Source of the DNA: a virus
Taxonomy: Duplodnaviria; Heunggongvirae; Uroviricota; Caudoviricetes
Strand: one strand, 5' to 3'
Virus record (IMG/VR): IMGVR_UViG_3300042346_001601
Length of the DNA stretch: 40,116 nucleotides
The notes beneath the pieces are model-generated. The model ran no database searches and was not told the origin of the DNA. It saw only the letters and a program-made list of their open reading frames with translations. How positions within the stretch are numbered: position 1 is the first letter of the stretch; the number at the start of each line of letters is the position of its first letter. This document shows positions 234 through 37,866 of this stretch, one piece after another. The position numbers and the translations under genes were made by a program.

Positions 234-1139
234 ATGCAACACCTCCAATCCTTTTCCCTGTTCGAAGCCCGAGCTTCTATTTTGACGAGCTCCAGGAAGG
301 CATTTTTGAATAGATACACTCGAGGACGCTGGTCGGTCAACCCAGAGACAGGGCTAGTGGATGTAAAGGGAAGTTTTGCTTGTGGAGGTAAAAGATTAAA
401 GAGCTTACAGGGCATCTCGTTCGGACATGTCAGTGGGAATTTCTACTGTCAAGGCAACCAACTGAACTCCCTGGCTGGGGCACCTCAGACGGTGGGTGGG
501 GATTTCTCCTGTTTCAGAAACCAGCTGACGACCCTGGTCGGAGCACCCCAGACGGTAAATGGGAGTTTCGACTGTTCCGGCAACCAGCTGACGACCCTGG
601 TCGGGTCACCTCAGACGGTGGATGGGGGTTTCTCCTGCGGCGGCAACCGGCTGACGACCCTGGTCGGGGCACCCCAGACGGTGGATGGACATTTCCTCTG
701 TTCCTACAACCAGCTGACGACCTTGGCCGGGGCACCTCAGACGGTGGGTGGGCATTTTATCTGTTCCAGCAACCAGCTGACGACCCTGGTCGGGGCACCC
801 CAGACGGTAGATGGGGATTTCTCCTGCGACTCTTTCGAAGTCCGGAGTGGGAAATGGAATCCCCAGGGCTGGGCCGAGATTCTGGCCACTGGCGATAGCA
901 AAGCCCGGAGGCTGATTGTGACCCTGTTCGATGCCGGCTTCTGGCTGCAGAAAGTGAAGGGGGATCTGAAGAAAGACGGCCAGGTGCTCCTGCAGCTGGC
1001 GTCCCTCTGGGATGAGCCAGGCTGGGAGGAGCAGAGACAGGAGATCGAACAGAGACTCAGTCCTGAGCAGCTTCGGGTCATCAAGGCCCTAAAGACCAAA
1101 TTGGACTACGTCAATCCCTGGAAGGACGGGATTGTCTAG
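234..1139 (+). CDS. Leucine-rich-repeat protein (21-aa VxGxFxCxxNxLTTLVGAPQT repeats) with leader peptide and conserved C-terminal domain
   Basis: 301 aa; six full repeats plus a partial; N-terminus MQHLQSFSLFEA; C-terminus shared with neighbours. Confidence 0.9.
   Translation: MQHLQSFSLFEARASILTSSRKAFLNRYTRGRWSVNPETGLVDVKGSFACGGKRLKSLQGISFGHVSGNFYCQGNQLNSLAGAPQTVGGDFSCFRNQLTTLVGAPQTVNGSFDCSGNQLTTLVGSPQTVDGGFSCGGNRLTTLVGAPQTVDGHFLCSYNQLTTLAGAPQTVGGHFICSSNQLTTLVGAPQTVDGDFSCDSFEVRSGKWNPQGWAEILATGDSKARRLIVTLFDAGFWLQKVKGDLKKDGQVLLQLASLWDEPGWEEQRQEIEQRLSPEQLRVIKALKTKLDYVNPWKDGIV
429..827 (+). repeat. 63-nt tandem coding repeat, 6 full units plus a partial
   Basis: CAGACGGT recurs at 486, 549, 612 and onward with a 63-nt period. 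Confidence 0.95.
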
Positions 1140-1140
1140 A

Positions 1141-1148
1141 GATATATA
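1141..1148 (+). promoter_or_regulatory. GATATATA box
   Basis: Context identical to the 221 copy (205-271 equals 1125-1191). Confidence 0.7.
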
Positions 1149-1153
1149 AGAGC

Positions 1154-2086
1154 ATGCAACACCTCCAATCCTTTTCCCTGTTCGAAGCCCGGAAGACTTC
1201 AGGCCTGACCCCCGACCAAGAGGCATTTTTGAATGACTGCACCAAAGGGCTTACCAAAGGGACCTTTTTAGGGACCTGGTCGGTCAACCGACGGACCGGT
1301 CTGGTCGATGTGGAAGGAGATTTTTACTGTAGTGGCAGCGGACTGAAGTCTCTGTCGGGCATCTCGTTCGGACATGTCAGTGGGCATTTCTGGTGTTCCC
1401 ACAACCGGCTGACGACCCTGGTCGGGGCACCCCAGACGGTGGGTGGGGGTTTCGGCTGCGACAACAACCATCTGACGACCCTGGTCGGGGCACCCCAGAC
1501 GGTGGGTGGGGGTTTCTCCTGCGGCAGAAACCAGCTGACCTCCCTGGTCGGGGCACCTCAGACGGTGGGTGGGGGTTTCAACTGCCACCAGAACCAGCTG
1601 ACTACCCTGGTCGGGGCACCCCAGACGGTGGGTGGGAGTTTCTTCTGTTACAACAACCGGCTGACCTCCCTGATCGGGGCACCCCAGACGGTGGGTGGGA
1701 CTTTCGACTGCGTCTTCAACCAGCTGACGACCCTGGCCGGGGCACCTCAGAAGGTGGGTGGGTATTTCTACTGCGACTCTTTCGCACTCCAAAAGGGGAA
1801 ATGGAATCCCCAGGGCTGGACCAAGATTCTGGCCACTGGAGATAGCAAAGCCCGGAGCCTGATTGCTCCCCTGTTCGATGCCGGCTTCTGGCTGCAGAAA
1901 CTGAAGGGAGACCTGAAGAAAGACGGTCAGGTGCTCCTGCAGCTGGCAGACCTCTGGGATAATCCAGGCTGGGAGGAGCAGAGACAGGAGATCGAACAGA
2001 GACTCAGTCCTGAGCAGCTTCGGGTCATCAAGGCCCTAAAGACCAAATTGGGCTACGTCGATCCCTGGAAGGACGGGATCGTCTAG
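1154..2086 (+). CDS. Leucine-rich-repeat protein, tandem paralogue of 234-1139
   Basis: 310 aa; same leader, repeat scaffold and C-terminal domain; different N-cap and variable repeat residues. Confidence 0.9.
   Translation: MQHLQSFSLFEARKTSGLTPDQEAFLNDCTKGLTKGTFLGTWSVNRRTGLVDVEGDFYCSGSGLKSLSGISFGHVSGHFWCSHNRLTTLVGAPQTVGGGFGCDNNHLTTLVGAPQTVGGGFSCGRNQLTSLVGAPQTVGGGFNCHQNQLTTLVGAPQTVGGSFFCYNNRLTSLIGAPQTVGGTFDCVFNQLTTLAGAPQKVGGYFYCDSFALQKGKWNPQGWTKILATGDSKARSLIAPLFDAGFWLQKLKGDLKKDGQVLLQLADLWDNPGWEEQRQEIEQRLSPEQLRVIKALKTKLGYVDPWKDGIV
1376..1774 (+). repeat. 63-nt tandem coding repeat, 6 full units plus a partial
   Basis: Units start at 1376, 1439, 1502, 1565, 1628, 1691 and 1754. Confidence 0.95.
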
Positions 2087-2137
2087 AGATATATTCGTCG
2101 GAGTACCTAAATGGGTGGTTAAGGTTTTCGACGGGGA

Positions 2138-2233
2138 ATCAAGCAGAGACCCAGTCCTGAGCAGCTTCAGACCATCAAGGGCTCAAGATTCAGACTCTTC
2201 TACGTTGATCTATGGAGGGATGTAATCTATTAA
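2138..2233 (+). pseudogene. Decayed remnant of another LRR-array C-terminus
   Basis: Reads IKQRPSPEQLQTIKGSRFRLFYVDLWRDVIY* versus IEQRLSPEQLRVIKALKTKLGYVDPWKDGIV*; no usable start; box upstream degenerated to GATATATT (2088). Confidence 0.75.
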
Positions 2234-36072: not shown

Positions 36073-36105
36073 ATTTTGAATTTATTTTAGAATGTGATTT
36101 GTCTC

Positions 36106-36144
36106 CAAATATAAGAGAAAGCCTTCAGACATTAATGATATATA
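36106..36144. promoter_or_regulatory. Divergent promoter pair: TATATTTG (minus, 36106-36113) and GATATATA (plus, 36137-36144)
   Basis: Same arrangement as 34214-34252. Confidence 0.55.
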
Positions 36145-36166
36145 GAGAAAAATCTTCTAATTTTTC

Positions 36167-36463
36167 ATGAAAACATACCATCAATTTCTGAACGAAGCCA
36201 CAACTAAATCCAGCCCCATCACCCCTTTTGAAGACAGCCTAAAATTGATCATGGGGATTCTACAAAGTGAAGAACTGAAAAAATTATTGGGGGGCCAGTC
36301 AATTTCATCGCTCAAAGCAAATTCTGAGATCTCCACCGACCACGGAATGGGCAGGGAAACATCGGTTCAAAGATTCACCGTAAACGGAAATTTGAATCTA
36401 GAGGTAACGTGTGTTGCAGGAACAGGATCTCAGCAGACCCAGTGCACCGTCAAGAAGATTTAA
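36167..36463 (+). CDS. Small protein with a T4 internal-protein-like N-terminus (MKTYHQFLNEA)
   Basis: 98 aa; leader resembles the T4 capsid-targeting sequence MKTYQEFIAE. Confidence 0.75.
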   Translation: MKTYHQFLNEATTKSSPITPFEDSLKLIMGILQSEELKKLLGGQSISSLKANSEISTDHGMGRETSVQRFTVNGNLNLEVTCVAGTGSQQTQCTVKKI

Positions 36464-36520
36464 TGTCTTTGCTCTCCAACAGGGTTTCTACAAAAGTGAA
36501 AAGCTGTTGGACACACCAGG

Positions 36521-36632
36521 TTCAAAAAAACGGATATTTAGAAAAATTTAAAAGCAAGTTATGGTTCACAATTTCAACCAATTTTTACAGATCCTTAACG
36601 AGGAAAAATCAGGATCTGACCCCAAACCCAAC
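36521..36632 (+). repeat. Promoter plus leader cassette, copy 3 (box mutated to GATATTTA)
   Basis: Aligns to 32857-32968 at a constant offset of 3664. Confidence 0.9.
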
Positions 36633-37866
36633 ATCAACCCTAAAGGTTTAAAATTAGGCTCTGGTGGAACCAAAAATCCAAAAGAGGTCCCAGACGTGAA
36701 GAAATTACAGCAGATTCTAATAGATGAAGGATTTTTAAAAACAAAAAGCGGTATTCCCACTGGATATTTCGGAGAATTAACCGCCAGTGCTCTTGAAAAA
36801 TACCAGAAATCAGGAGGAAGTCCTGCTTCAAAGACTTCGTCTTCCCAAACACTGTCACAGATAAAGCCCCCCCTATTACAATCCCCCTTCCGAAAGTACT
36901 AGGGTCGATTCAACGGAGAGAACAAAAGCTGTCTTTGAATGGTGGGAGAAAAAAGCTGGGAAGATGTCCAATAGATCTTTCAATTTTATTCTACGTCTGC
37001 AAAAAGAAAATAAATTGAAAAATGAATCTTTCCTAATTGCAAACAAAAAAGCGGGAACAATTAGTCTTTTTGCTCCCGGCTATAAATTTGTTATCAATTC
37101 TTTCTTCGCATCGGGTAAAATAAAGGATTTAGGTATAGGAAAACCTAAAACATATCCTGATTGGTACTCAGCTTCTGTAAAATTCTCCAGAGAGAAACCA
37201 AATGATCCTCAAAGCAAAAGATTTGTAGATTTTTTGAAAAAAATAGGTTGTAATCTAGAATGTAGTTACGAAGATGCTGAAAAAAAGAACAATGAGTTTC
37301 GAAAAAAAAATCCGGAAGCTCGCATTCCTTTTATTTACCCCTCTGAAGGGGGAACTACAAGACCGGGAGTTTTTAGAGTATCAAATACAGGGGGGCAAGA
37401 AAATTACCTGACAGGAGGAAGTTCAGATCCTCAGGGTAAGATCCCTACTGGTAACATTTTCCGGTTATATACCTTAGATACCAATGAGATGATTCCGATG
37501 GCTGTTCACGGACACGCAAATCAAACTAGGCAAGAAGTAGCAGGGGATTTGAAAAAAAACTTTGTCCCCATTTCTTTTGGGGGTGAAAATAAAGCTTCCG
37601 ATAAAGGCAGAGTAGGGGCAGGTTGTTTAAATGTGGACCGAGAATTTTTAGTAAAAATGGGTGAAATTAAACCTAGTTACGTTATTATTTTACCGGATGT
37701 TGGTGATGATAAAGACCTAGTGCCTTTAGTGCCTTTAATTTTATCAACTAGTTCGTTCCAAAAGATGCTCATCAGCATCGAAAAAGAAGGAAAGGAGATC
37801 GGAAAAAATTTATACTCATTGGTCAAAAATAAATTATCAGGTTCTCTATTTAATATTTTTAAATAG
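36561..37866 (+). CDS. Leader, peptidoglycan-binding domain and L,D-transpeptidase-like domain, split by a +1 frameshift in a C7 run (track ORFs 36561-36902 and 36964-37866)
   Basis: PG_binding_1 (VKKLQQIL...GYFGELTASALEKYQ); YkuD-like (FLIANK, TRPGVF, AVHG...GAGCLNV); deleting one C at 36867-36873 gives a single 434-aa ORF. Confidence 0.7.

Follow-up and report, generated by a model that had tools for sequence, protein, structure and literature searches.

Putative capsid-targeting leaders on about one gene in eight of an uncultured jumbo phage

A 40,116-nt stretch of DNA from an uncultured phage (Caudoviricetes; IMG/VR record IMGVR_UViG_3300042346_001601), hereafter the window, encodes many proteins that begin with a similar short leader, in which a hydrophobic and aromatic core is followed by a glutamate. 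We consider it likely, at a probability of roughly 0.7, that this leader is a capsid-targeting propeptide removed by the head protease and borne here by ~13% of genes; packaging and cleavage of the tagged proteins are predictions. In this lineage the leader, which is clade-wide, would correspond to the T4 capsid-targeting sequence (CTS), with a client list that is greatly enlarged and diversified. The evidence comprises the motif itself, its excess over chance, its link to an upstream ATATATA box, its conservation, its likeness to leaders of T4 and of Sphingomonas phage PAU, and the T4-type protease and capsid protein of relatives. The window is made up of 799 nt and, after them, the initial 39,317 nt of an IMG/VR virus contig of 177,044 bp, rated 74% complete by CheckV. 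The standard genetic code fits the contig, and our 240 gene calls (on the 177-kb contig and the first 799 nt of the window) cover 91% of the DNA. Positions below are those of the window unless the contig is named.

All 17 window N-termini listed in the original prediction are present at their coordinates and on their strands; the one at 21658, on the minus strand, has GTG as its start codon instead of ATG. Across the contig we counted with a strict pattern, hydrophobic-x-x-aromatic-x-x-aromatic/Leu beginning at residues 2–10, then hydrophobic-x-Glu. It matches 26 of 240 N-termini, against 4.4 expected from the 35,607 internal windows used as control (p ~9e-13), a six-fold excess. The hydrophobic-x-Glu site is present in all 26 by construction of the pattern, and in 20 of them the Glu is followed by A, S, N, E, T or G. 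Together with clear cases recognized by eye outside the strict pattern, the contig has ~31 leader genes, ~13% of the total: 17 inside the window and the others at contig positions 77085, 98162, 100632, 102260, 103111, 104186, 107346, 111034, 118015, 119947, 120837, 124457, 135961 and 141502. The leader takes up ~10–28 residues, with a core of hydrophobic-x-x-Phe/Tyr-x-x-Phe ahead of a (Leu/Ile/Phe)-x-Glu site. An unconstrained expectation-maximization motif search over the first 30 residues had leader-type seeds as its best starts but ended up at an unspecific amphipathic pattern (gamma 0.6), and it was left unused for counts. A weight matrix with a hard threshold became over-fitted to one subtype, NF..F.

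The tagged proteins had been described as unrelated, and mostly they are. With the first 25 residues trimmed, BLASTP sorted the 31 leader proteins into 25 clusters without mutual similarity, namely one leucine-rich-repeat (LRR)-like family of seven and 24 singletons. The description fails for five of the 17 window genes (left ends at 234, 1154, 9712, 10872 and 14219), which belong to the LRR-like family. In both AlphaFold2 models made, the leader is predicted to lie outside the folded domain. For a tagged adenylate kinase, pLDDT is <50 at residues 1–13 and ~90 in the enzyme core, and the Pfam ADK domain begins at residue 25; for the 301-aa LRR-like protein (234), pLDDT is <50 at residues 1–14 and ~95 in the solenoid, which is followed by a helical C-terminal domain.

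Leaders are absent from several gene classes. Signal-peptide and lipoprotein genes (33845, 35497, 37846) and the sugar-enzyme cluster at 18920–29080 lack them, as originally claimed, and the replication genes (polymerase, helicase, topoisomerase and ribonucleotide reductase) are also without a leader.

We placed the phage among uncultured jumbo phages by its conserved 1190-aa structural protein. Kin by this protein are Prevotella-hosted phages, uncultured phage records of 460–735 kb, Sphingomonas phage PAU, Tenacibaculum phages PTm1, PTm5 and pT24, and Chryseobacterium and Flavobacterium jumbo phages. Many relatives are in IMG/VR, six of them rated complete (290–435 kb), three of the six with terminal repeats. 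A megablast of 18 kb of the window against a phage collection gave no match, and exact-protein look-ups aimed at extending the contig returned no record.

The leader is conserved among these relatives. The tagged adenylate kinase has orthologues in 19 of them (49–68% identity), among which are all seven relatives with a completeness of 90% or more; the leader is kept in every orthologue, and Phe10 and Glu13 are invariant in an alignment of 18 sequences. An alignment of LRR-like proteins spanning two phages has Met1, Phe10 and Glu11 invariant. In the complete relative G011 (289,651 bp), the pattern picks out 44 of 384 genes where 6.2 would be expected, a seven-fold excess, and its homologues of a RimK-like ligase, of the LRR-like family and of six other leader genes keep the leader while its sequence has diverged. 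For nine window cargo genes, no homologue was found in the relatives examined.

That the tag is portable, also an earlier claim, is borne out in two ways. The genes at 32897, 34273 and 36561 have ~60 nt in common (box, spacer and first nine codons) and then encode different proteins, a promoter-leader cassette on different gene bodies. The second case is a tagged ClpB-like ATPase, which has a leaderless, 39%-identical homologue in another phage. A locus search with the ClpB-like protein, swamped by a low-complexity pattern, gave one usable homologue; none was found in G011 or PAU.

ATATATA occurs 24 times on the plus strand and 37 times on the minus strand of the contig, against ~11.6 expected per strand. 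All 24 plus-strand copies are intergenic, though intergenic DNA is 8.5% of the total, and in 44 genes the distance from the box end to the start codon is 4–38 nt. The box precedes 18 of the 26 pattern matches and 26 of the 214 other genes (odds ratio 16, p 1e-9), leaving eight leader genes boxless. Each window leader gene was said to have the box, a variant or an operon position, and this proved accurate. Exact ATATATA lies within 60 nt upstream in 13 of the 17; one- or two-base variants precede 12062 (GGATATAAAAGG, also 16 nt past the preceding gene) and 36561 (GATATTTAG); and the boxless genes starting at 4378 and 10875 are operon-like, lying 16 nt past, or overlapping, a preceding leader gene. 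The box, which differs from the T4 late promoter box TATAAATA, is also found before tail-fibre-like and other structural genes, and before the protease gene of another relative, G004.

Some further observations concern the box. The perfect palindrome GGATATATATCC lies between divergent genes at 13979–13986 and at contig positions 103444 and 174165, with leaders on both flanking genes at 13979; a single 12-nt palindromic element could serve both transcription directions. Upstream of the adenylate kinase orthologues of many relatives, the place taken by GGATATATAG in this phage is occupied by a conserved element resembling TGTGGATCATAAA, and the promoter-like box may differ among sub-clades. Boxed but leaderless genes encode a beta-propeller and lectin protein (5326), a DUF285 protein (21747), a PG_binding and GH19 protein (39346) and tail-fibre-like proteins (154502), all probable external virion or lysis proteins; other boxed genes without the leader look like lipoprotein genes. 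A Laminin_G_3 protein (31382) also has no leader. Its nearest ATATATA, at 31280, is 96 nt before the called ATG; the gene may really start elsewhere, or a small gene upstream may have escaped the calls.

The likeness to T4 is closest in the 36167 gene. In NC_000866, T4 ipII and ipIII start with MKTYQEFIAE-A, confirming the T4 sequence quoted in the original prediction, and ipI starts with MKTFKEFTST...ITE-A. The 36167 protein begins at residue 1 with MKTYHQFLNE-A, identical to the IPII/IPIII tag at seven of 11 positions, and this N-terminus is the top match to the T4 tag among the 51,734 11-residue windows of the proteome. The other leaders have only the pattern aromatic-x-x-aromatic ... Glu in common with the T4 CTS. 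In T4, internal proteins join the scaffolding core by means of the tag, and gp21 cuts after the Glu (PMC5694885, PMC9958956). The CTS of IPII and IPIII, and also of IPI and Alt, is removed by gp21 (Mullaney & Black 1996, as cited in PMC5694885, PMC9958956), which cuts Alt at, for example, ITE-6 and LTE-619 (PMC5694885, PMC9958956, PMC3012670).

A prohead protease gene, whose location had been left to find, is not on this contig; Peptidase_S77 matches were found in five relatives, G011 and PAU. The five relatives, whose 1190-aa protein is 64–80% identical to that of this phage, have one match each, four of the five above the curated cut-off. G004 is syntenic with 147–177 kb of the contig and continues past the contig end into a head module ~35 kb further on. 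There, three consecutive genes encode an 882-aa protein in portal position, a 675-aa protein that matches the S77 domain (5.5e-9) and a capsid protein of the Gp23 family (1e-37); it is the 675-aa gene that an ATATATA box precedes. The G004 and G011 capsid proteins both have HYHSLNE-SAGAY ahead of the gp23 domain, and the genes after the capsid gene carry leaders in both genomes. Very probably, the missing quarter of the present genome holds the same module. The protease of G004 (L107:5748-7772, plus strand), G011 (43277–45307) and PTm1 (ORF-300) is fused to a long C-terminal region with ~15 copies of a 14-residue repeat, YSEYLAENLDxxIS. Because of these YSEYLAEN-type repeats the region has many L-x-E sites, as expected for a digested scaffold, and it is probably a scaffold with a protease site in every repeat. 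A structure prediction for the complex of the G004 protease/scaffold with a G004 leader protein scored 0.00, with both chains poorly folded, and is no evidence either way. The contig itself encodes, at 133148–133624 (L010:12352-12825, minus strand), a 158-aa protein that is 43% identical over 82 residues to the relatives' major capsid protein. It copies the capsid stretch just past the predicted cleavage site, from DLSE-SEGAF.. to ..GSGDKFPSL; possible roles are mimicry of the capsid N-arm, service as a minor capsid protein, or action as a decoy substrate.

PAU, whose 1190-aa structural protein is ~28% identical, encodes an S77 protease (gp151) along with a capsid protein of the gp23 family. 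The latter was found by N-terminal sequencing to be trimmed from 585 to 520 residues (PMC5646251), and the cut position is within one residue of an L-M-E site. Four of the five PAU proteins deposited as "internal capsid protein" (NC_019521), gp142, gp154, gp199 and gp270, begin MK[ST][IL]..LYE.., three of these four with ..KLNE-A. The scaffold gp152 begins in the same way, as do ~25 PAU genes in all, many of them clustered round the head genes. We found no publication that describes the PAU leader. In the same PAU record, gene 1 (94–1182) carries the product name "RNA polymerase sigma factor", in conflict with its note, "internal capsid vertex protein (mango) subunit 2". The T4-type capsid-targeting reading already offered in the original prediction gains support from the 36167 match, the T4-type head of relatives, the PAU leaders and the portability of the tag. 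The literature on PAU-like, Tenacibaculum, Chryseobacterium and megaphage genomes yielded no description of such a leader, and the papers on PA-SR01 and MA9V-1 contain no virion mass spectrometry.

We infer late timing, core binding, cleavage, head retention and injection as steps of the following scheme. Genes behind the ATATATA promoter, probably a late one, would be expressed during prohead assembly; the leader would carry each protein into the scaffolding core; a gp21-type (Peptidase_S77) prohead protease would cut after the Glu; and the mature proteins would remain in the head with the DNA and probably be ejected into the host. The head would then probably carry an unusually large protein set, perhaps delivered to the host with the DNA.

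Several points weigh against this scheme. Protease, scaffold, capsid protein, portal, terminase and sheath were not found on the 74%-complete contig, and the link to a protease comes from relatives. Between the aromatic core and the first candidate Glu lie anywhere from 0 to ~18 residues, so that the precise cut sites can be no more than guessed. The metabolic-type adenylate kinase and an 821-aa ClpB-like ATPase are not cargo that one would expect. In PAU, the fifth "internal capsid protein", gp70, is leaderless, and the labels themselves are GenBank notes for which we found no underlying data in print; in phage PTm1, of the same broad group, no leaders were evident in the two regions read. 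ATATATA is a putative late promoter, and Sigma70 region 2 and region 4 domains were absent from the contig in a domain search.

Explanations without a working protein tag fare worst. Chance, or a side effect of paralogy and of an amphipathic helix that is common at N-termini, might be suspected because seven of the leader proteins are paralogues and the unconstrained motif search ended at an unspecific amphipathic pattern; with 25 unrelated clusters, the six-fold and seven-fold excesses in two genomes, and Phe and Glu invariant in the adenylate kinase and LRR-like orthologue sets, we give this explanation almost no credence. Nearly as improbable is that the leader is an RNA or DNA signal, such as part of a promoter, an initially transcribed region or a translation start enhancer for late mRNAs with short leaders, an idea suggested by the very short 5' untranslated regions that follow from a box ending 4–38 nt before the start codon, and by the promoter-leader cassette that some genes have in common at the DNA level. 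Synonymous codons vary at the conserved residues: Phe is encoded by TTT/TTC in a ratio of 14/11 at one aromatic position and 17/8 at the other, and Leu and Glu codons vary as well. The core starts anywhere from residue 4 to 11, a shift of up to seven codons. Because synonymous codon choice and core position vary, the signal acts on the protein and not on RNA; and since orthologues moreover have different upstream DNA but the same amino-acid pattern, the main cause cannot be a promoter or translation signal. The eight boxless leader genes point the same way.

Two alternatives accept the leader as a protein tag. It might be recognized by a phage machine other than the capsid, such as a modifying enzyme, a chaperone or unfoldase like the ClpB-like ATPase, or a degradation system, and the genome does encode a ClpB-like ATPase and a RimK-type ligase. 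Both of these are themselves tagged, however, and G011 and PAU have the tag system but no ClpB-like gene. A radical-SAM domain was not found in the contig, G011 or PAU, and the tag resembles the leaders of T4 and PAU head proteins and ends in a protease-type site; we regard such a machine as improbable. The remaining serious rival grants that tagged proteins enter the prohead core and are cut, and holds that they are mostly assembly or core components, or workers inside the head, which are degraded or kept and not injected. The T4 core proteins gp22, gp67 and gp68 are degraded by gp21 (PMC5694885, PMC9958956), and in PAU, G004 and G011 many small leader genes lie directly beside those for protease, scaffold and capsid. 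On the other hand, many tagged proteins are large folded enzymes or binders (LRR solenoids, the RimK-like ligase, a LysM or lysozyme protein, adenylate kinase), and tagged genes lie far from structural genes and turn over quickly among relatives, which is more like the internal-protein loci of T-even phages than like scaffolds. We judge this rival unlikely.

A capsid-targeting tag would have wider meaning. A bolder version of the proposal, to which we give somewhat less than even odds, is that a freshwater jumbo clade (250–435 kb) loads 30–45 proteins, ~1 gene in 8, by a degenerate T4-like tag and injects them as an arsenal for host takeover and anti-defence. Adenylate kinase, a RimK-type ligase, enzymes active on the wall and variable arrays of LRR binders would belong to that arsenal, as would the ClpB-like unfoldase in the case of this phage. 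Genome sequence would then suffice to list the proteins that an uncultured phage injects, and new cargo would be recruited by recombination at the ~60-nt promoter-leader cassette. If the tag works as in T4, it marks capsid-borne, and perhaps host-entering, proteins in phages that cannot be cultured; dozens of genes of unknown function per genome would become candidate early-acting effectors, such as defence inhibitors or host modifiers. The T4 internal-protein paradigm, so far a matter of a few proteins, would extend to ~13% of a genome, and anyone wishing to package foreign proteins into large capsids would have a diverse set of natural tags to choose from. Two concrete oddities open to testing are the tagged LRR arrays and the adenylate kinase with its conserved tag.

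Among the window leader genes, the first two encode LRR-like paralogues of 301 aa (234..1139, plus strand; box 222–228) and 310 aa (1154..2086, plus; box 1142–1148) with the identical leader MQHLQSFSLFE-A. Two genes follow on the minus strand. One, at 3287..4378 (363 aa), starts MKNLVSFLHF, reaches LSE at residue 29 and is the boxless gene 16 nt after the 4394..5002 gene. The latter encodes 202 aa with HExxH at residue 103 and the leader MKNLLNYTSWGLGLLE then S (box 5018–5024). Next come three more minus-strand genes: 9712..10875 (LRR-like, 387 aa; MKNELNFNIFE-G), overlapping the stop of the upstream gene and probably in an operon; 10872..12062 (396 aa; MKKTIVQNFTEFINE then S), with the variant box and a G011 homologue that also has a leader; and 12078..13952 (624 aa; MKNIHILSFDSFSSPLLE then N), whose G011 homologue keeps the leader. 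The last of these has the palindromic box in common with the divergent 14002..14217 gene (plus, 71 aa), which starts MGKNISTTFGEFF and reaches VSE-S. A distant LRR-like member of 318 aa (14219..15175, minus) has the leader MKHLVPFLIFE-S and a box at 15186–15192. For the 194-aa protein of 17153..17737 (minus; MRHVQVFENFE-T), the box at 17742–17748 is 4 nt before the ATG.

The remaining window leader genes lie beyond 20 kb. A 92-aa protein (20786..21064, plus; box 20760–20766) has the leader MSRVLNFNQFSKLYE then T. The candidate with the GTG start (21305..21658, minus; 117 aa; box 21686–21692) begins (V)KYLLPYPLFE-K; its start is less certain, our gene caller having taken a later ATG at 21595. 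The 126-aa protein of 29376..29756 (plus; box 29356–29362) has the leader MHNLRTYEDLRLNE then A, the closest to the PAU type (..LYEAKLNE-A). The three cassette genes, all on the plus strand, encode 313 aa (32897..33838; MVHNFNQFLQDLNE then E; box 32870–32876), 399 aa with LysM and an endolysin-like region (34273..35472; MVHNFNQFLTHRSLLE then S; box 34246–34252) and 113 aa (36561..36902; MVHNFNQFLQILNE then E; variant box). Between the last two lies the gene with the T4-like tag (36167..36463, plus; 98 aa; box 36138–36144).

Cargo identities could be assigned for some of these proteins. The 34273 protein matches Pfam LysM (3e-7) and the endolysin family phrog_380 (1e-11). Of a metalloprotease and a kinase named earlier as cargo, the former is backed by the one HExxH in the 4394..5002 gene and otherwise by weak ImmA/IrrE, M78 and SprT-like leads from a protein atlas (0.86–0.88); no kinase was found among the window leader proteins, the tagged adenylate kinase lying outside the window at contig 124457–125089. 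PHROGs gave nothing for seven window cargo proteins, a sequence search of the 624-aa, 396-aa and 202-aa proteins against PDB chains nothing informative, and atlas leads for the 624-aa protein fell below a useful score. In Pfam, PHROGs, PDB and atlas searches, the window leader genes other than the LRR-like family, 34273 and 4394 matched no known family. Outside the window, tagged proteins at contig positions include a RimK-type ATP-grasp ligase (104186), a phage lysozyme domain protein (119947) and a peptidoglycan-binding domain protein (135961). The ClpB/ClpA-like double AAA+ ATPase (98162–100627; L006:17363-19825, plus strand; 821 aa) has a box, and its usual N-domain is replaced by the leader; a capsid-packaged unfoldase would be unusual.

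The LRR-like family, with members at 234, 1154, 9712 and 14219, has ~21-residue tandem repeats with an LxxLxLxxN-type signature and the consensus VGGxFxCxxNQLTSLxGAPQ. The 9712..10875 protein matches Pfam LRR_4 at E 7e-5, under the curated cut-off. A fold search with the 234 model returned LRR domains for all top PDB matches (IpaH, SspH, YopM, Slit and variable lymphocyte receptors), although these are weak (E 6e-3, TM ~0.4). The LRR-like gene array at 1–2100 has 57% G+C, against 33–46% elsewhere in the window, and a second array of this family lies at 117.0–119.9 kb of the contig, with boxes at 117007, 118004 and 118800.

These leaders can be compared with several known systems. Like the T4 CTS, they are N-terminal tags of about ten residues with Tyr/Phe-x-x-Phe, ending in (Leu/Ile)-x-Glu before a small residue; they sit on otherwise unrelated, fast-evolving proteins and accompany, in relatives, a Peptidase_S77 protease and a gp23-family capsid protein. 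The fast turnover of cargo genes likewise recalls the variable internal-protein loci of T-even phages (PMC3012670). Unlike the handful of tagged proteins in T4, there are ~31 among 240 genes on this partial contig and ~44 among 384 in the complete relative. The leaders here, known from their sequences alone, are far more variable in sequence and length, and their cargo includes LRR-like arrays, adenylate kinase, an ATP-grasp ligase and a ClpB-like ATPase. PAU belongs to the same broad phage group and has an S77 protease, and the ending ..LRLNE-A of window gene 29376 resembles its ..KLNE-A; the PAU leader, however, is near-uniform and mostly on small proteins near the head genes, whereas the leaders here are diverse and found genome-wide on large enzymes and binders.

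The phiKZ-like giant phages also have many head-internal proteins that are cut after Glu by a gp21-related protease (phiKZ gp175, SPN3US gp245; PMC5694885). Their sites are S/A/G-x-Glu at the end of long, dissimilar propeptides with no short common tag (PMC5694885), and their protease is of family S80, whereas the best match of the G004 protease is S77, with S80 weaker. The LRR domains of type III effectors (IpaH, SspH, YopM) are the best structural matches to the tagged LRR-like protein and have similarly short repeats of ~21 residues; in each system the binder would be directed into a different cell by a short signal at its N-terminus. The phage protein is without the E3 ligase domain, its route would be head and tail in place of a secretion system, and the comparison is one of resemblance only.

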